A DNA stretch of 51,422 bases from Candidatus Doudnabacteria bacterium RIFCSPHIGHO2_01_48_18 (GTDB lineage: Bacteria > Patescibacteriota > Doudnabacteria > UBA920 > 2-01-FULL-46-14), in the NCBI GenBank assembly GCA_001777515.1, contig MFEF01000003.1:1-51422 (forward strand). Direction: 5' to 3'. The position numbers were made by a program, and so were the translations under genes. The notes beneath the pieces are model-generated. The model did no database searches. It was given only the letters and a program-made list of their open reading frames with translations, and had not been told where the DNA came from. Shown here one piece after another: positions 18,186 through 29,785 of the stretch. Each line of letters begins with the position of its first letter. The stretch's first letter is position 1.

Positions 18186-18809
18186 TCAATAACGAAAGTA
18201 ACGACTGAACAACTTTGAAATAATGTAAGCCGACCCAACGCCAACCGCGGCGCCGGCTAACACATCCGTGGGATAATGCGCGCCAAGGTAGACACGCGCG
18301 ATACTCAAAAAAGCAGCGCCGGCAAAAATAATAATTCCGTATTTTTTATCATAGAAATAAATCCAGCACCTTCCTGTCGGGGTATTGCACCCCGCAGGAA
18401 GGCTATATTGAGCCATTCATCCCCGCAGCAAGCTGCGGGGTATTCTGGAAGGTGCTGGATAAAAAGCGACGGCAACCGCAAAATAAAACGCCGTATGGCC
18501 TGACGGAAACGCTGGGGCTGACACGTTTACTAGTGCTTTTATTTCTTCCATGACCGAGCCTGGACGCGCACGCTTGTAAAACCACCTGATTCCTTCTACT
18601 AAGACAAACCTTGATAGGACTGCTGACAAAAATGCAGACCAAAACAAACGGCGTTTGCGAACCAGCATCACAACCAGAAGCCCTATTGCAGCGTAAACTC
18701 CGTAGTAGTCAGCATGGATAAAAATCTGATCCAAAAAATCCCAGCGCTTCGCAAAACCATTTACCAGGCCAAGGACATGATTATCAAAGCTGGCAAGATA
18801 CTCTTTCAT
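18186..18809 (-). pseudogene. PAP2-family phosphatase (BcrC-like) split by a 102-bp insertion
   Basis: RARP and FPSGH in the 5' part, ARVYLGAHYPTDVLAG in the 3' part. Both halves are in the same frame, separated by one TGA inside the insertion. Confidence 0.85.
18357..18463. mobile_element. MITE-like palindromic element, copy 1 (97-bp core + ATAAA direct repeats)
   Basis: Identical to 28039-28145. Terminal inverted repeat ccagcaccttcc/ggaaggtgctgg and two internal hairpins. Confidence 0.9.
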
Positions 18810-22194: not shown

Positions 22195-22866
22195 TTAGTT
22201 ATTTGTTTTCAGTACTTTCAGTATTTGTTTCTTGCTTATTGGCCCCCGCCTGATTATTTCGATTTTGCCGCTTTTTAATCTTACCATAGTTGACGGTTGA
22301 ATTTTTTTAAGTTTTCCACTATCGAGTACCAAATCAGGTTTGAGCTTTTCGCTCCTAAACTGCCATTCTATCTGCGAAATGGAATACGCGGTTGGCGAGG
22401 TCGAGATATTCGCGCTTGTGGCAGTAATCGGCCGGCCAAGTTTTCTCACGAGTGCTAGCGCGATTTTGTTGTCTGGCATGCGGATGCCGATTGTTCCAGT
22501 CCCGGCAGACAATATACCAAAAGCGATACCTCGCCCCTTGCGGGAGAGGGATGCCCGCCTCGACTCGCCGTCTTCGGCGAGGCGGGGGGTGAGGGGTAAA
22601 ATCAAAGTTAACGGCCCAGGCAAAAATTTTTTAAATAATTTCTCTGCGACTGGAGTAAATTTGGCGTATCTTTTTGCCATCGCAAGATCTGCTATGATAA
22701 TATGAACGGGTTTTGCCGGCCGGCGCTGCTTGATCTGAAACAGCCGCTTCACAGCTTTCGGATTGGTGGCATCCACAGCGAGCCCATAAGCCGTGTCTGT
22801 CGGAAACACCACCGCCTTGCCAGCGCGCAAATATTCAACTGCTTTTTTTAAAATTTCATTACGCAT
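22195..22866 (-). CDS. tsaC: L-threonylcarbamoyladenylate synthase (TsaC/YrdC/Sua5)
   Basis: VFPTDTAYGL, PGPLTLIL, GIRMP, TATSANIS. Likely start is MRNEIL at 22866. Confidence 0.93.
   Translation of the reverse strand: MRNEILKKAVEYLRAGKAVVFPTDTAYGLAVDATNPKAVKRLFQIKQRRPAKPVHIIIADLAMAKRYAKFTPVAEKLFKKFLPGPLTLILPLTPRLAEDGESRRASLSRKGRGIAFGILSAGTGTIGIRMPDNKIALALVRKLGRPITATSANISTSPTAYSISQIEWQFRSEKLKPDLVLDSGKLKKIQPSTMVRLKSGKIEIIRRGPISKKQILKVLKTNN
22528..22596. repeat. Nested REP-like palindrome inserted in frame in tsaC
   Basis: Minus strand cccctcacccc...ccctctcccgcaaggggcgagg, with an inner cccgcctcg...cgaggcggg hairpin. Confidence 0.7.
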
Positions 22867-22893
22867 TTTGACGCAATTGCTTGGTTTTACGTA
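22858..22893 (-). repeat. Dispersed copy of the AAAACCAAGCAATTGC motif
   Basis: 33/36 identical to 28005-28040 in inverted orientation. Confidence 0.85.
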
Positions 22894-23576
22894 GCGAGTC
22901 GCAAATCTTCGGGCGTGGAAATTTTCTTCCAAAACGTCGCCTCAACAACTGAAAATTTATGTCCATCTTTAACCATTTGCAATAAGGTCTGGGGTAATCC
23001 ATATTCTGAAGTATGATTTTCCGCTAACACTGGAGGGTACTTAAAAAAATCCTTATTTAAGATGTACGCTCCGGCATTAACTAAATCGCCTTTCTTTCCC
23101 GGCTGTCGTTCCACAATATTTGCTAATTTTCCACCTTCCACTTTAACAATAGCGTTTTCATAACTTGGATCATCCTTAACGAGTCTCGAAACTAGAATTC
23201 CTAGAGGCTCGCGAGCAAGCTTTTCTAAATCGTCTTGAGAATACAGATCGTCTCCCATGATAACCAAAAATTTGTCTTTTAACTTATCTTTACAAGCAAA
23301 CAAAGCATCGGCAGTCCCGTTAAGGTGAGGCTGATTGACGTATTCGAGATCTAAAAACGTTGCAACATTCTTTATTTCTCTTAAATAAGCCTGAATTTGG
23401 GAACCCTGGTATCCACCGACCACAAATGCTTTATTAATTTGCTGAGGCAGCGATCTCAAACTTCTGATGAGTAAAGTTTGATCATCATTCTCCAACTTCA
23501 AAAGCGGCTTGGGGGTATCCTTTGTTAGATCTCCCATCCTTGTCCCCCGCCCCGCTGCCAAAATAACTGCCTGCAT
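22887..23576 (-). CDS. Sugar-phosphate nucleotidyltransferase family protein
   Basis: AVILAAGRGTRM...PKPLL, GTADAL, MGDD. Confidence 0.9.
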   Translation of the reverse strand: MQAVILAAGRGTRMGDLTKDTPKPLLKLENDDQTLLIRSLRSLPQQINKAFVVGGYQGSQIQAYLREIKNVATFLDLEYVNQPHLNGTADALFACKDKLKDKFLVIMGDDLYSQDDLEKLAREPLGILVSRLVKDDPSYENAIVKVEGGKLANIVERQPGKKGDLVNAGAYILNKDFFKYPPVLAENHTSEYGLPQTLLQMVKDGHKFSVVEATFWKKISTPEDLRLAT

Positions 23577-26410
23577 TATAGCACCACGAAATTAATGATC
23601 TTTCCTGGAACATAGATAAATTTGGCCACGGTTTTTCCGACGAGCTGCTTTTGAACCTGGGGACTCGATTCGGCGGTTTTCCTGGCATCCGCTTCGCTGG
23701 CGCTGACAGCAACGCGAATAGTATCCCTGACCCGGCCGTTGACCTGCACGGCCATGGTTATGAACTCGTCTTTGACGAAATTAGCATCAAGCTCCGGCCA
23801 CGGTGCAAGGTGAACCGATTGTTTATTGCCCAATGAGCGCCAAAGTTCTTCAGCGAGATGCGGCGCAAACGGGGCGAGCAGCCGCAAAAATATTTGCAGG
23901 TGCTGTTTGGTAGGGATTGTCTTTTCAAATTCATTCATGAGAATCATCAAGGCAGAAACAGCAGTGTTGAACCGGTAGTCTTCGATATCTTCAGTGGCTT
24001 TCTTGATGGTTTTGTGAACTGCCGTGTCCAGGTCCGCGGCTTCTTTCAATTCTGACTGGGCGATTCGCCAAACCTTTTCCAAAAACCTTCTCACGCCGAT
24101 TATCCCCCGGCTGTTCCAGCTCACCGTCTGCTCGTGCGGCCCGAGGAACAGCTCGTATATGCGCATTGTGTCCGCGCCGTAGAGTTCTATGATTTCGTCA
24201 GGATTGACCACGTTGCCCCGCGATTTTGACATTTTCTCGCCGTCCTCAGCAAGAATAATGCCGTGCGGCACGCGCTTGGTGTAGGGTTCGGCAACCGGCA
24301 CAATCCCCTGGTCATGCAAAAACAAATTCCAAAAACGAGAATACAGTAAATGCAAAGTGGTGTGCTCCATGCCGCCAAAATACACATCAACCGGCAGCCA
24401 GCGCTGCATCAGATCTTTTGTGGCCAATTCTTTCTTGTTCTCAGGGTCAGTGTAGCGCAAATAGTACCATGAACTTCCCGCCCACTGCGGCATAGTATTG
24501 GTTTCGCGCTTGGCTTTCCCGCCACACTGCGGACATTTTACATTCACCCATTTGTCGATCACGGCAAGAGGCGATTCCCCTGTTCCGGTCGGCTCGTATT
24601 TTTTCACGTTGGGCAGTTTCACCGGCAAATCTTTTTCCGGAACCGGCACAGTACCGCATGCAGTGCAATGAATAATCGGAATCGGCTCACCCCAATATCG
24701 CTGCCTCGAGAACACCCAGTCGCGTAGTTTGTATTGAATCTTTTTCTTGCCGAATTTTTTTATGGCTTCGTCAATTGGTATCAAAGGCTTGTCAGCGATC
24801 GCCAGCTTGTATTTTTCCGCAAATTGGCGATCCCGCTCGTCGTGCGCGGGCACAGCCATTATTGCGCCGGTGCCGTAACCCATCAAAACATAATCCGCGA
24901 TCCAAAGCGGAATTTTTTCTCCGGTCGCCGGATTGATCGCTTTGATGCCTTTCAGCTCCACGCCGGTTTTTTCTTTCTCCAGAGCTGACCGCTGAATATC
25001 GGTTTTTTTCCTGGCCTCTTCCATGTATTTCAAAACCTCTGACGCATTCGAAACACGCGGTGCCAGTACCTTCGCTAGCTGATGTTCTGGCGCCAGAACC
25101 ATATAGGTCGCGTCATAAATCGTATCAGGACGAGTTGTAAAGATTTTTATTGCCCCCAAAGCAACAGACAAAACCTCTGGTTCAATCTTGGCGCGGAAAT
25201 GCGAATCTTCAGCGCGGACTTTGAATATGCCGAACCCGGTTTTTTCCGCAAACTGTTCACCATCTGAAATAGGAACAACATGATCGCCGGTATCATACAA
25301 AAATGTAAAACCAAGGGAATTATTTTTTATGATTCGAAAATCAAATCCTCGTTGCACAGCAGCAGTAACTGTTGGCCGCTCTTTTCCATCCAAATATTTG
25401 CCGCTAAATGGAGTCCCGATCAAAATAGCGCGGTTAATTTTTATTCCTTGTTCTAGGAGCCGCATTGCTACAACGCCGCCAAACGAATGCCCGATCACCA
25501 CTGTTTGCTCATCGAATTTACATTGCTTTTTAACAAATTCGGCTTGCACCAGATCATCTGGTTCCTCTGGATTTGGCATATCAGGAACCTGCACCTCAAA
25601 TCCTTTGTTCTCCAGTTCATGTTTCAGCCACGGATAAAACACATCCGTTGACGCTCCTCCCTTCGCATGCAAAATCACAAACCGCTTCACCGCAGGCTGA
25701 TCTAAAAAAAAATCAATTTCCGCGCCCTCGCTTTTCCCGATCCAGTTTTCCTGCTGCAGCTTGACTTGATCAGGCCACTCGGGTAGATTTTTCAGCCCCT
25801 CAAGCAACTTTTCAGCGTAAGCCGTGATTTTCAAATACCATTGCCGCAGTTCTTTTTTCTCCACAGTCGCGCCGCACCGTTCGCATTTTCCATCAATCAC
25901 CTCTTCGTTCGCGAGACCAGTCTTGTCCTGCGGACACCAGTTGATCAGGCCGGTCGCCTCGTAGGCAAGGCCAGCTTTGTAGAATTGCAAAAAAATCCAC
26001 TGTGTCCATTTGTAATAATCAGGATCTGTGGTGTTTATCTCCCGTGACCAATCAAATGATGTTCCCCAGCTTTGCACCTGCCGCTTGGCGTTTTTAATGT
26101 TTTGCTTTGTGGTTATGCTGGGGTGAACTCCCTTCTTGATAGCAAAATTTTCTGCTGGCAGACCAAAAGCGTCCCAGCCCATCGGGTACATTACCTCTGC
26201 CCCGTGCATCCGCTGGTAACGCGAATACACATCCCCTGCGACATACGGCCGCAAATGCCCCATGTGCAGTCCCTCGCCCGAGGGATACGGAAACTCAATC
26301 AAAATATATTTCTTAGGCTTTTTTGATTTATCCTTGGCATTATAAATTTTCTTCCGATTCCAGAATTTCTGCCATTTCTGTTCTAGTTTTTTCGGCTCGT
26401 AAGATTTCAT
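23576..26410 (-). CDS. leuS: Leucine--tRNA ligase with inserted alpha/beta-hydrolase domain
   Basis: FPYPSGEGLHMGH, GWDAFGLPAEN, FTTRPDT, SRQRYWGEPIP, KMSKS. The insert carries GHSFGG. Confidence 0.97.
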   Translation of the reverse strand: MKSYEPKKLEQKWQKFWNRKKIYNAKDKSKKPKKYILIEFPYPSGEGLHMGHLRPYVAGDVYSRYQRMHGAEVMYPMGWDAFGLPAENFAIKKGVHPSITTKQNIKNAKRQVQSWGTSFDWSREINTTDPDYYKWTQWIFLQFYKAGLAYEATGLINWCPQDKTGLANEEVIDGKCERCGATVEKKELRQWYLKITAYAEKLLEGLKNLPEWPDQVKLQQENWIGKSEGAEIDFFLDQPAVKRFVILHAKGGASTDVFYPWLKHELENKGFEVQVPDMPNPEEPDDLVQAEFVKKQCKFDEQTVVIGHSFGGVVAMRLLEQGIKINRAILIGTPFSGKYLDGKERPTVTAAVQRGFDFRIIKNNSLGFTFLYDTGDHVVPISDGEQFAEKTGFGIFKVRAEDSHFRAKIEPEVLSVALGAIKIFTTRPDTIYDATYMVLAPEHQLAKVLAPRVSNASEVLKYMEEARKKTDIQRSALEKEKTGVELKGIKAINPATGEKIPLWIADYVLMGYGTGAIMAVPAHDERDRQFAEKYKLAIADKPLIPIDEAIKKFGKKKIQYKLRDWVFSRQRYWGEPIPIIHCTACGTVPVPEKDLPVKLPNVKKYEPTGTGESPLAVIDKWVNVKCPQCGGKAKRETNTMPQWAGSSWYYLRYTDPENKKELATKDLMQRWLPVDVYFGGMEHTTLHLLYSRFWNLFLHDQGIVPVAEPYTKRVPHGIILAEDGEKMSKSRGNVVNPDEIIELYGADTMRIYELFLGPHEQTVSWNSRGIIGVRRFLEKVWRIAQSELKEAADLDTAVHKTIKKATEDIEDYRFNTAVSALMILMNEFEKTIPTKQHLQIFLRLLAPFAPHLAEELWRSLGNKQSVHLAPWPELDANFVKDEFITMAVQVNGRVRDTIRVAVSASEADARKTAESSPQVQKQLVGKTVAKFIYVPGKIINFVVL

Positions 26411-27183: not shown

Positions 27184-27936
27184 CTATTTCAGCAATTTAA
27201 GAATCTTTGGATGCAGTTTCGGATTTGCCGCGATTATTTCCTTGGAATCCCAGCGGTAAGGCTTGCCTTTCAGATCCGTGGTCTTTGCCCCTGCTTCTTT
27301 GAGAATCAATCCAGCTGCGGAATAATCCCATGGATAGGCGCCAATCTGAATCGCAAAATCAAATCTGCCAGCAGCCGTATTTGCTAAATCTAGTGCTGAC
27401 GCCCCTTTGTGTATGCTCCACGCGTTAGTTTTCAAATGAAATCTGTGCACTTTTTTTTTCATGGCGACAGAAACCGATGAATTGAAATCAGACACATCCA
27501 GAGCATGCTCCGGTGAACTAATCGGCGAAACTGTTATTTTTTTTCCATTCAAAAAAGCGCCTTTGTTTTTTGCTGCAAAAAACAATTCGTCCTGCATCGG
27601 ATCGTAAACAGCTGCTGCTGACAAAACACCGCTCTTCGCATACGCAATCGAAATACAAAAATAAGCAATTCCGCGAGAAAAATTACGAGTCCCGTCAATC
27701 GGATCGATTATCCATAAATGCTTCTGGTTTTTAATATCTGTTCCTTCTTCCGATAAAATGCCGTGTGAAGGAAATTTCTTCCTTACCCTGTCCTGGATAA
27801 ATTTATCTACAGCGAGATCATACTGCGTCACCGGGTCCCAATGTCCCTGTTTTTGCTTGATTTGGATTTCTTGCTTGAACCCTTGCCGGAGTATTTGTCC
27901 CGCTCCCTTGGCCAAGTTTTTAATAAACTGTTCCAT
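27184..27936 (-). CDS. Inositol monophosphatase family protein (SuhB-like), tandem paralog
   Basis: SEE, WIIDPIDGTRNF, WDYSAA. Confidence 0.93.
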   Translation of the reverse strand: MEQFIKNLAKGAGQILRQGFKQEIQIKQKQGHWDPVTQYDLAVDKFIQDRVRKKFPSHGILSEEGTDIKNQKHLWIIDPIDGTRNFSRGIAYFCISIAYAKSGVLSAAAVYDPMQDELFFAAKNKGAFLNGKKITVSPISSPEHALDVSDFNSSVSVAMKKKVHRFHLKTNAWSIHKGASALDLANTAAGRFDFAIQIGAYPWDYSAAGLILKEAGAKTTDLKGKPYRWDSKEIIAANPKLHPKILKLLK

Positions 27937-28004
27937 ATTTGGATTTTACCACAGTACCTAAAAAAATAAAACCTTGCCTAAACAGCACTAAAATCAATTT
28001 CTAT

Positions 28005-28040
28005 TACGTAAAACCAAGCAATTGCTTGGAAATGCGTAAT
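28005..28040 (+). repeat. AAAACCAAGCAATTGCTTGG motif copy downstream of the PaaX-like gene
   Basis: tacgtaaaaccaagcaattgcttggaaatgcgtaat shares 20 bp with the palindrome at 28844-28883. Confidence 0.85.
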
Positions 28041-28145
28041 AAATCCAGCACCTTCCTGTCGGGGTATTGCACCCCGCAGGAAGGCTATATTGAGCCATTC
28101 ATCCCCGCAGCAAGCTGCGGGGTATTCTGGAAGGTGCTGGATAAA
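28039..28145. mobile_element. MITE-like palindromic element, copy 2
   Basis: Identical to 18357-18463 including the ATAAA flanks. Confidence 0.9.
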
Positions 28146-28160
28146 TAATTTGTGGTGAAA

Positions 28161-28826
28161 TTAAAGTACCCCCGTACGCTGAAAAAACTTTTTCAGTTTT
28201 TTTTCATCGTCGATGTCCAACCTGTTAATCTCCATAGCTGTGACATAGTGCGCTATCTGATAATGAGAAGCAACATACTGTATCTCCTCTCTTGGATCAT
28301 AAGGATAAAGCCACAAAGTCCTTTGTAATGGAAAAAAAATCATTTCTTTCAGCTTATTGCGAAGCAAATCTGCTCCCCTTTTGTGTTTTTTTGTCGGTAT
28401 GTCGGCAGCAATCAGCCACCATTTGCCGTTCCAATGTTTTTGCTTTGGAACTGTCAGATTATTAAAATTGATGTTTTGAATTTTTTTCCTGCCAAGTTTA
28501 GTTAAAAACACTATAAAATCGTCTCCCGCCCATCTCAGGCGGATGAATTTTTTTGTCCTCAAATAATAAACCGTTCGAATAGCTTTTGCTTCACTGTCCT
28601 TTCGCAGCAATTTTCTGCCGTTTTTATCGTAAAATAACCGCTCAATACCTTTCATCAATTCAACTCCGAGGTTCCCCATACTAATAGCTATAGGAGACGC
28701 GGCTAAAATCAGAGCAAATTCCGTTGCATTTTTTAATTTCATGATTTGTTCGGTATTCAATAGTTTTCTCTTTTCCTTCGGCAAAAGATTCCGGATTGTA
28801 TTTGCGATGTCTTTGTGGTAAGCCAT
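28161..28826 (-). CDS. PaaX-like protein (putative wHTH + Cas2-like central domain)
   Basis: WNGKWWLIAADIP...LRNKLKEMIFFPLQRTLWLYPYD matches the PaaX/Cas2-like pattern. LTKLG wing motif. AGGAG SD before ATG 28826. Confidence 0.8.
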   Translation of the reverse strand: MAYHKDIANTIRNLLPKEKRKLLNTEQIMKLKNATEFALILAASPIAISMGNLGVELMKGIERLFYDKNGRKLLRKDSEAKAIRTVYYLRTKKFIRLRWAGDDFIVFLTKLGRKKIQNINFNNLTVPKQKHWNGKWWLIAADIPTKKHKRGADLLRNKLKEMIFFPLQRTLWLYPYDPREEIQYVASHYQIAHYVTAMEINRLDIDDEKKLKKFFQRTGVL

Positions 28827-28843
28827 ACTCCTATATAATACAT

Positions 28844-28883
28844 CACTACACAAAACCAAGCAATTGCTTGGTTTTGTGTAGTG
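28844..28883. promoter_or_regulatory. Perfect 40-bp palindrome upstream of the PaaX-like gene
   Basis: cactacacaaaaccaagcaa|ttgcttggttttgtgtagtg with no spacer. Confidence 0.9.
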
Positions 28884-28939
28884 TGAAATCAAAAATTAGA
28901 AAAAAGGAAACCGCGAAAAAAATCGGCCGGATGGGACCG

Positions 28940-29785
28940 CTAAATTCTAAATAGCCGTCGGGCGTTGGCAGTAGTAACCTCTTCAACTTTGGAAATATCA
29001 ATCCCCTTCATCTGCGCGAGCTTTTCAGCCACAAATCTGACATATGACGGCTCGTTCCGTTTGCCGCGGTGCGGCAAGGGAGTCAGAAAAGGCGCGTCAG
29101 TCTCAAAAATCGTAGATTCCAGCGGCAGATTCTTGACCACCTTGTCGCTGCGGCCTGTTTTGTCAAAAGTAATTATGCCATTGAGAGCAACAAGCCCGCC
29201 GCGCTTCACAAATTCCATGGCCGTAGGAGCGTCTCCGGTAAAACAATGAATTTCAAAATTTGGCGACCGGTAATTTTCGTCGAGTATCTTGAGGACATCT
29301 TGGTACGCATCCATAGACCCTTCAGCCGGGCGGCAGTGGATCATGAGCGGTTTGTCAATTTCTTTGGCAAGCTCAATGTGTTTGATCATCACGTCCTTTT
29401 GCTTTTGTTTGATTGCGTCGTGGTCATGCTCTTTGGGTAAACGGTAATAATCGAGGCCAAACTCGCCTATCGCAACGACCTTAGTGGATCTGGCAACCAG
29501 ATCGCGAAACGAGCCAACCTCAAATTCCTCGCCGTCTGTATGAAAACTCGCCTCTTCCTCATCTAGGTCCACTCGGTGCTCGAACAAATGAATCGGATGA
29601 AGCGCGACCGCAGCGTAAACACCGTCTGAATAATTTTCCGCAAGCTCAACCGCCGAACGCGAGGTCTCAAATTTGGTCCCGGCATTGACTATCCAAACAC
29701 CGCTGTCTAGCGCGCGTTTAACAACATCGTCAGCATCATCCTTGAACGCTTTAAAATTCACATGAGTATGAGTATCGATGAGCAT
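28940..29785 (-). CDS. tatD: TatD family hydrolase
   Basis: IDTHTH, AIGEFGLDYY, IHCR, HCFTG, ETDAPFLTP, RGKRNEP. Confidence 0.96.
   Translation of the reverse strand: MLIDTHTHVNFKAFKDDADDVVKRALDSGVWIVNAGTKFETSRSAVELAENYSDGVYAAVALHPIHLFEHRVDLDEEEASFHTDGEEFEVGSFRDLVARSTKVVAIGEFGLDYYRLPKEHDHDAIKQKQKDVMIKHIELAKEIDKPLMIHCRPAEGSMDAYQDVLKILDENYRSPNFEIHCFTGDAPTAMEFVKRGGLVALNGIITFDKTGRSDKVVKNLPLESTIFETDAPFLTPLPHRGKRNEPSYVRFVAEKLAQMKGIDISKVEEVTTANARRLFRI

Follow-up and report, generated by a model that had tools for sequence, protein, structure and literature searches.

The stretch of DNA analyzed here (51,422 nt of contig MFEF01000003.1 from Candidatus Doudnabacteria bacterium RIFCSPHIGHO2_01_48_18, our contig C3; hereafter the window) carries a stand-alone gene for a small PaaX-like protein, which is bracketed by two copies of a palindrome of about 40 bp. 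The anatomy of this bracket, its recurrence throughout the protein family, the co-variation of palindrome and protein, the synteny of the gene and the fold of its product are established. On balance, the protein is probably a minimal and possibly membrane-anchored autorepressor of the PaaX type, with a 40-bp operator over its own promoter, additional promoterless sites that would serve as roadblocks, boundaries or loop partners, and a small regulon. A preliminary description of the window had pictured the same arrangement as a self-propagating module resembling repetitive extragenic palindromes and their associated tyrosine transposases (REP/RAYT). The bracketed anatomy on which that proposal was built is real and turns out to be general; the self-propagation is contradicted by several lines of evidence considered below.

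The bracketed gene and its protein

The features on which the argument rests are as follows.

28161-28826, minus strand: PaaX_M gene, a 221-aa open reading frame (ORF) with its ATG at 28826, between tatD and suhB
28844-28883: O1, a perfect 40-bp palindrome (arms 28844-28863 and 28864-28883, no spacer between them), the proposed operator over the gene's own promoter
28858-28863, minus strand: -35-like TTGCTT, with which the right arm opens at the dyad center; 3 of 6 positions match the consensus
28835-28840, minus strand: -10-like TATTAT, separated by 17 nt from the -35-like box and lying 3 nt beyond the palindrome
28005-28040: O2, an imperfect cognate palindrome between the gene's stop and the suhB start, 121 nt past the stop
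22855-22893: O3, a cognate copy where a sugar nucleotidyltransferase gene meets tsaC, covering the former's TAA stop and the latter's ATG

The preliminary description had placed a perfect palindrome just upstream of the gene, a degenerate copy about 120 bp past its stop and a third copy 5 kb away, and all three were found. O1 reads CACTACAC-AAAA-CCAAGC-AATT-GCTTGG-TTTT-GTGTAGTG, with arms that are 100% complementary and a folding energy, as single-stranded DNA, of -20.4 kcal/mol (z = -7.35). The ATG sits 17 nt downstream of it, and the minus strand in between reads ATGTATTATATAGGAGT. O2 (ATTACGT-AAAA-CCAAGC-AATT-GCTTGG-AAAT-GCGTAAT) is 82% complementary to O1 over 34 nt and folds at -9 kcal/mol (z = -4.87); read by eye, it has no -10-like box where one would be expected, whichever direction is considered. 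O3 is 90% complementary to O2 over 39 nt and has intact outer arms, a degenerate inner right arm and no hairpin fold (z = +0.63). That a copy unable to fold has nevertheless kept both outer arms fits recognition as double-stranded DNA. The 16-mer core of the palindrome occurs four times in the window at three places, O1 being counted twice since a perfect palindrome scores on both strands, against an expectation of 0.11, and 0 of 100 shuffles reached four.

The genome-wide scan that the preliminary description had called for was performed on the whole assembly (919,187 bp in 33 contigs, 100% complete by marker genes) using the 16-nt core and allowing up to 3 mismatches. It returned 14 matches, 6 of them with shared flanks, and these six sites (O1 and five others) make up the O1 family of the genome. 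The five non-promoter copies conform to TCATTACGY-AAAA-CCNNGC-AATT-GCTTGR-AAAY-GCGTAATGA. One (O2) separates the gene's stop from suhB, one (O3) sits at the nucleotidyltransferase/tsaC junction and one separates rmlB from rmlD. The other two each lie between the 3' ends of two convergent genes: an inositol-monophosphatase-family gene paired with a mannose-6-phosphate-isomerase-like gene (cupin) in the one case, an amino-acid-kinase-family gene paired with a PMT_2 glycosyltransferase gene in the other. Their neighbors thus include NTP_transferase/TsaC, three Inositol_P genes, the mannose-6-phosphate-isomerase-like cupin, RmlB/RmlD and the PMT_2 glycosyltransferase. Each half-site is composed of an outer arm of 8-9 nt, an A/T spacer of 4 nt with variable self-complementarity, an inner arm of 6 nt and a 4-nt center. 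In all five non-promoter copies the spacer is non-complementary, with AAAA opposite AAAT or AAAC. Against Rfam, only two tRNAs in the window reach the gathering score, and a permissive scan of 27900-28960 gave chance-level microRNA-like matches on the palindrome.

The 221-aa protein matches PaaX_M (PF20803, the Cas2-like central domain) over residues 130-210 (E = 2.4e-13; 50.4 bits against a cut-off of 24), in agreement with the domain recognized earlier from the sequence alone, and this is the sole Pfam domain matched. There is no match to the N-terminal PaaX model of Pfam at E up to 1, and no Pfam match to the C-terminal helical effector domain of PaaX (PaaX_C, which binds phenylacetyl-CoA); the protein stops at residue 221, about 10 residues past the ferredoxin fold. 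An AlphaFold2 model calculated from a 40-sequence alignment (mean predicted local distance difference test score 83.3) begins with a poorly defined N-terminal part of low confidence; a winged helix follows, with its helices at 50-64 and 75-91 and its wing at 95-108, and a linker helix leads on to the Cas2-like ferredoxin domain (136-217). Comparison with the PDB using Foldseek ranked E. coli PaaX (8a39) first (E = 2.1e-5, 215 aligned columns), followed by Rv0674 (3kfw) and a PaaX-like protein from Jannaschia (3l09), with MarR-type winged helices also matched. For the C-terminal domain, the Cas2 chains 3exc (probability 1.00, template-modeling score (TM) 0.64) and 6jhz (probability 0.99, TM 0.51) were identified. 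A profile search of PDB sequences gave nothing below E 0.6, and the PaaX link among PDB entries is by fold comparison only. A homodimer prediction for two copies of residues 66-221 scored 0.28, the mark being 0.42, which speaks neither for nor against a dimer.

Invariant residues in the 40-sequence alignment include D142, D153, R156, Q168, T170, D204 and D207, and no His is invariant among the 40 sequences. According to the alignment and the model, D142 ends strand beta-1 (136-141) of the ferredoxin fold, presumably at the position of the metal-binding or catalytic Asp of Cas2. A hydrophobic helix near residues ~35-55 (28661-28724 of the window, minus strand) is present in 40 of 40 aligned members; a 19-residue Kyte-Doolittle window reaches at least 1.6 in every one of them (median 2.38), and a Lys/Arg-rich stretch comes after it. 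Judging from the sequence, this helix may be an N-out, C-in membrane anchor of a DNA-binding protein. The gene is AT-rich relative to its surroundings, as had been suspected, with a guanine-plus-cytosine content of 37.8% as compared to 41.0-48.6% in seven neighboring genes and 47.8% genome-wide. The whole assembly was searched for PaaA_PaaC (PF05138) and for the Cas1 family with no match to either, and no CRISPR-like array occurs in the window; the earlier statement that the window contains no paa pathway and no CRISPR array is thereby confirmed.

Recurrence across paralogues and relatives

A profile search of 1.84 billion representatives found 3334 clusters (50% identity) with an E value of 0.001 or lower, of which 1793 reach 1e-10 or lower. 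The members are deposited as nothing more than hypothetical proteins and come from Candidatus Doudnabacteria and further Patescibacteria. Counting the genome of the window, 31 genomes of its order were compared; one or more matches occur in 23 of them, and the number per genome runs from 0 to 12. The genome studied here encodes five further relatives, each with its own, different upstream palindrome. The expectation that paralogues and homologues would carry palindromes of their own with copies close by is borne out in 4 of the 6 paralogues, which have a cognate copy just past the stop plus one to four elsewhere; a fifth has the upstream copy only, and the sixth lies 196 nt from a contig end with its downstream side out of view. 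The other paralogue families comprise 3-4 copies each, and the range across families is 2-6. One paralogue (C22:46226-46548) is seen as two overlapping matches in different frames and may be frameshifted; it keeps an upstream palindrome of 46 bp, and the 97-nt repeat described in the last section has a copy directly past the paralogue's 3' end.

Outside this genome, 79 public-genome loci provided 78 genes, of which 76 have at least 120 nt upstream (2 were dropped). A palindrome scoring at least 12 within 200 nt upstream is found for 42/76 homologues and for 10/242 other ORFs of the same loci (Fisher p = 4e-22); at a score of at least 15 the counts are 33/76 and 4/242. The palindromes (loop of at most 4 nt) measure 24-54 bp, mostly 32-48, which compares with 40 for O1. 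They are gene-specific, yet certain center types are common, namely GCAATTGC, ACATATGT, ACAAATGT, CGATCG and CCATGG. At least 300 nt of downstream sequence is available for 40 of the 42 loci scoring at least 12. With a cognate copy defined by at least 70% identity over the full length within 300 nt past the stop, such a copy is located strictly after the stop in 26/40 loci and in 30/40 when copies overlapping the stop are counted, at a median of 15 nt from the stop. Palindromes taken from other loci, as a non-cognate control, match downstream in 19 of 1722 pairings. The upstream neighbor is co-directional in 21/23 loci, and the downstream neighbor is co-directional in 17/25 and convergent in 8/25. 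Pairs with higher protein identity also have more similar arms (Mantel r = 0.28, permutation p = 0.0005; 40 loci, loop of at most 4 nt), as would be expected if motif and protein change together, although shared ancestry alone could contribute to this correlation.

When the 42 upstream palindromes are aligned on their dyad centers, a TAnnnT box appears 21-25 nt from the center toward the gene in 21/42, as compared to 9/42 in the reverse direction. Several upstream loci read TGnTATAAT at this place, and the center is mostly TTGnnn or ATGnnn. Among downstream copies, the box points toward the next gene in 4/26 and the other way in 10/26; these copies do not serve as that gene's promoter. We also considered O2 as the operator of a suhB promoter and rejected it, given that no -10-like box lies at the usual offset and that family-wide only those 4/26 downstream copies have one. 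The positions under constraint were located by comparing upstream with downstream copies at 30 loci: changes occur in 3/120 cells at positions 1-4 from the center and in 10/145 at positions 13-17, as against 42/240 at positions 5-12. The E. coli PaaX site, as given in a review, is TGATTC(N27)GAATCA, 39 bp long with hexamers 14-19 nt from the center (PMC9493321). The size of the palindrome and its conserved 13-17 block are thus in agreement with the one characterized relative.

The position of the gene is conserved as well. Its best relatives in five further genera (G001, G004, G005, G006 and G008) lie after tatD and before suhB or leuS, an order that argues for vertical inheritance. Protein identities across these genera are 42-53%, within the range of suhB (44-59%), leuS (50-58%) and tatD (59-72%). 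The palindromes vary from genus to genus, with the upstream and downstream copies changing together. The nucleotidyltransferase/tsaC and rmlB/rmlD junctions of a genome of the same genus carry palindromes of ~38 bp, whose arms (ATTCCCA or ATTACC) are of that genome's own type, and a second paralogue lies in its corresponding contig neighborhood. In the short rmlB/rmlD spacer of five genera (loci L126-L130), 4/5 relatives have a palindrome and the sequence types differ, which suggests that this spacer is a hotspot of regulation or a boundary, and that the factor cognate to it has been replaced in the course of time.

Interpretation and alternatives

From these results we infer DNA binding, the geometry of the dimer, repression and a role for the promoterless sites, in the following way. 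The protein consists of a winged helix and a Cas2-like domain (the latter serving dimerization in PaaX), with no ligand-binding C-terminal domain and perhaps with an anchor in its N-terminal helix. A dimer would bind double-stranded DNA over the ~40-bp palindrome and read the dyad center together with the block 13-17 nt to each side. O1 appears to hold the gene's promoter, in that the -35-like TTG lies at the center, the right arm forms the spacer and the -10-like box sits just outside. Binding at O1 would cover the region from -35 to -10 and shut off the gene's own transcription, and would also block read-through from the co-directional upstream gene. O2 and the junction copies would be auxiliary sites, acting as transcription roadblocks or boundaries, or as loop partners of O1. 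The location of sites beside sugar-nucleotide, inositol-phosphatase and glycosyltransferase genes suggests a small regulon.

Several observations weigh against this autorepressor model. The -35-like box of O1 matches its consensus so poorly (3/6) that the promoter scan does not list an O1 promoter, and the support for it comes from the family-wide geometry; moreover, a start set by the -10-like box would leave a leader of a few bases, with the AGGAG Shine-Dalgarno sequence outside the mRNA. No long upstream palindrome was detected for 34/76 homologues by the criteria used. The scarcity of -10 boxes in downstream copies (4/26), together with a convergent next gene in 8/25 loci, indicates that these copies are not ordinary operators. 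Of the dispersed copies in four paralogue families, 8 in all, 4 are flanked by convergent 3' ends, 3 occupy within-operon junctions and the remaining one falls in or at the edge of an ORF, with 0/8 in a clear divergent promoter region. Two of the 4 dispersed O1-family sites are without counterpart in the same-genus genome, and the functional theme among neighboring genes was spotted post hoc. The invariant polar residues of the Cas2-like domain, as far as sequence conservation can tell, might imply more than dimerization. Lastly, comparison of upstream with downstream copies at 26 loci revealed 33 changes that keep pairing by altering both arms, where ~2 are expected if the arms are independent, beside 44 one-sided changes. 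Such symmetric changes, mostly A:T to T:A swaps in the spacer, are not predicted for a homodimer that reads two independent half-sites. Simple autoregulation, which the preliminary description kept as its conservative alternative, fits the upstream copy well but leaves unexplained the conserved second site, which is tied to the stop codon whatever lies downstream.

The closest known system is PaaX, the phenylacetyl-CoA-responsive repressor of E. coli and Pseudomonas, with which the protein has in common the winged helix, the PF20803 domain and the best structural match. PaaX represses its own gene, and its operator is a very wide inverted repeat (6-N27-6; PMC9493321). The width of the site is likewise comparable, 39 bp there and a 40-bp palindrome (the putative operator) with its block 13-17 nt from the center here. 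Unlike PaaX, the protein described here has no C-terminal effector domain and no paa genes in its genome, and a hydrophobic N-terminal helix is present in 40/40 aligned family members; the family counts 0-12 paralogues per genome, each with its own palindromes, and a further difference is that the entire 40 bp are palindromic and that a second site lies at the stop codon. Extra sites of this promoterless kind are familiar from auxiliary operators and roadblocks such as lac O2, gal OE/OI and those of CcpA and CodY, which can act by looping or by blocking RNA polymerase. Those systems, too, place cognate sites that lack promoter elements downstream of the promoter or between genes. In the present family, however, the auxiliary site goes with the stop codon of the regulator itself, and it does so family-wide; we know of no described case of this. 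A literature search, mostly outside subscription journals, found no paper in which patescibacterial PaaX_M or Cas2-like proteins are connected with palindromes at their flanks. The fold and the geometry of the putative operator resemble PaaX, while the domain make-up, the expansion of private protein-palindrome pairs and the stop-codon bracket are not in the literature found.

Knowledge of how Patescibacteria (the Candidate Phyla Radiation, CPR) regulate their genes is close to nil. With up to 12 copies per ~1-Mb genome, this family may rank among their principal families of specific DNA-binding proteins. Each member displays its putative site twice beside its own gene, which should make specificity readable from sequence and small regulons predictable, and the family as a whole would be a natural library of orthogonal ~40-bp protein-operator pairs, a possible toolkit. 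The stop-codon site and the symmetric evolution of the palindromes go beyond textbook autoregulation.

A more speculative possibility, which we consider unlikely but worth keeping in mind, is that the paralogues are mutually orthogonal and possibly membrane-anchored boundary factors, not ordinary regulators of promoters. Each would mark the ends of its own gene and a few junctions with a private 40-bp palindrome, and would act there either as a roadblock terminator that halts or insulates transcription or as a cutter of junction hairpins in polycistronic transcripts, by means of a conserved acidic pocket in its Cas2-like domain. If true, this would be an undescribed way of punctuating operons in ultra-compact CPR genomes.

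Somewhat less probable still is a mechanism at the level of the hairpin itself. RNA or extruded DNA hairpins at gene ends and junctions would be recognized by the winged helix and acted on by the second domain as a Cas2/VapD-like nuclease or RNA-binding domain, which would lead to transcript processing, 3'-end stabilization or termination, with autoregulation through the gene's own flanking hairpins. The symmetric changes speak for it, since they can reflect selection on a hairpin (RNA or extruded DNA), and O1 and many other copies are perfect. The symmetric changes can also reflect template-switch correction of quasi-palindromes, a known mutational process that makes symmetric changes. The downstream copy, at its median of 15 nt from the stop, would be in the 3' untranslated region, and the dispersed copies occupy 3' ends and junctions, which are transcribed places. 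The mismatches give a divided picture. G:T exceeds A:C overall (18 vs 7, p = 0.04, base composition and window edges being uncontrolled), and internal mismatches read on the sense strand show 7 G:T vs 1 A:C in downstream copies (p = 0.07); on the other side, 44 of 69 mismatches are not wobble pairs, and upstream copies have 4 of each kind. The spacer is non-complementary in all five non-promoter copies and O3 is unfolded; the palindromes are AT-rich and mostly without a T-run, and the promoter geometry places O1 outside its own mRNA, all of which speaks against a hairpin as the recognized object. As to the protein, the C-terminal domain shares its fold with Cas2 (3exc, 6jhz), the invariant Asp ends the first strand of the ferredoxin fold, and Cas2 and VapD proteins are reported to be nucleases. 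In contrast to Cas2 and VapD, the domain is here fused to a winged helix, no Cas1 was found in the genome and no array in the window, and a toxin-antitoxin partner is not evident; the nearest characterized relative, PaaX, is a double-stranded-DNA repressor.

It is improbable that the palindromes are independent of the protein, that is, generic boundary or terminator-like elements which the protein does not recognize and which resemble one another through duplication of the gene with its flanks plus gene conversion between 40-bp repeats ~750 bp apart. Long palindromes are indeed frequent in this genome (84, many of which sit at gene ends, vs 1 after shuffling), unrelated palindromes occupy the rmlB/rmlD junction in four other genera, and the symmetric changes fit templated correction. 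The enrichment is nevertheless specific to the family (42/76 vs 10/242), the -10 box stands at a fixed offset from the dyad center, and the conserved center and 13-17 block match the operator geometry of PaaX. Dispersed cognate copies have also kept the same arms, even at distances of tens of kilobases or on another contig, and the junction arms of the same-genus genome have changed in step with its gene-flanking palindromes.

The REP/RAYT-like selfish module, in which the protein would mobilize itself and its palindromes and the dispersed copies would be the products, is the least credible explanation, and recent mobility of the module is close to refuted. Its attraction is understandable, as in REP/RAYT systems (REPtrons) cognate palindromes likewise flank the gene, each protein has its own type and extragenic copies are found, including between convergent genes; the variation from 0 to 12 matches per genome among 31 relatives and the AT-richness of the gene point the same way. 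REP/RAYT systems encode an HUH/Y1 transposase and have dozens to hundreds of dispersed copies. Here there is no HUH/Y1 domain and no invariant His, only six copies exist (2-6 per paralogue family), the palindromes are longer and often perfect, and the best match to Y1_Tnp (PF01797) in the genome remains below the cut-off at 17 bits with 3 internal stops. The gene is syntenic in five further genera, its orientation is fixed (upstream neighbor co-directional in 21/23), the second paralogue keeps its neighborhood in the same-genus genome, and 2 of the 4 junction sites are positionally conserved in that relative with the relative's own arms. No empty site was seen in the assembled contigs of four metagenome runs, where no contig joins across the gene or across the 97-nt repeat, which is weak evidence given that contigs cannot show absence. 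It follows that a REP/RAYT-like layout can arise without mobility. Contigs of four independent metagenome runs end or start inside O1 (28854-28878) and break at the borders of the repeat; the ends inside O1 are probably an assembler artefact at palindromic words.

Other features of the window

28924-28939, minus strand: terminator-like hairpin with T-run, right after the tatD stop and upstream of O1 (consensus match only)
28045-28141: MITE-like repeat (miniature inverted-repeat transposable element) of 97 nt, between the gene's stop and O2, separate from the protein-palindrome module
23576-26410, minus strand: leuS, a 944-aa leucyl-tRNA synthetase with an alpha/beta-hydrolase-fold insert at residues 243-339

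A dispersed repeat of 97 nt, which the preliminary description had missed, fills the 121-nt gap between the stop and O2. It has 13-nt terminal inverted repeats and two GC-rich hairpins, and a 110-nt stretch holding it folds as RNA at -61 kcal/mol. The genome contains 35 full-length copies (28 identical) and 6 partial ones; a second copy in the window is located at 18363-18459, the other 33 full-length copies are on other contigs, and all 35 have ATAAA on their left side and TAAA on their right. Metagenome contig depth is 44-121 over the repeat and ~0-6 in its flanks. The same-genus genome lacks the repeat (a 27-nt match only) and has its cognate palindrome copy 9 nt past the stop. The distance of O2 from the stop is thus due to insertion of the repeat, which, being absent from the same-genus genome, looks like a recent burst; diverged low-copy relatives of it are found in three other genomes. 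No transposase that could act on it was found among the two types searched, Y1_Tnp (no match above the cut-off) and TnpB-type (no match), repeats being often unassembled in a 33-contig draft. By crude ORF calls, 16 of the 35 copies are inside ORFs of at least 90 aa, some of them long, and the repeat may be open in one frame, or may fuse or extend genes.

A second, unrelated palindrome family, perfect over 30-34 bp and centered on GACTAGTC, was noticed at C8:3066-3097, C8:4858-4887 and C31:6966-6999. One of its members lies 13 nt upstream of a 159-aa ORF, and a near-identical palindrome is found at the rmlB/rmlD junction of G008 (locus L127). It may be typical of these genomes in general to carry long private palindromes where genes meet.

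The hydrolase-fold insert in leuS matches PF00561 with 27.3 bits (cut-off 25.8) and is located between the catalytic core (residues 12-225) and the editing-domain match (residues 420-539). A similar insert is present in the translated leuS of the same-genus genome.

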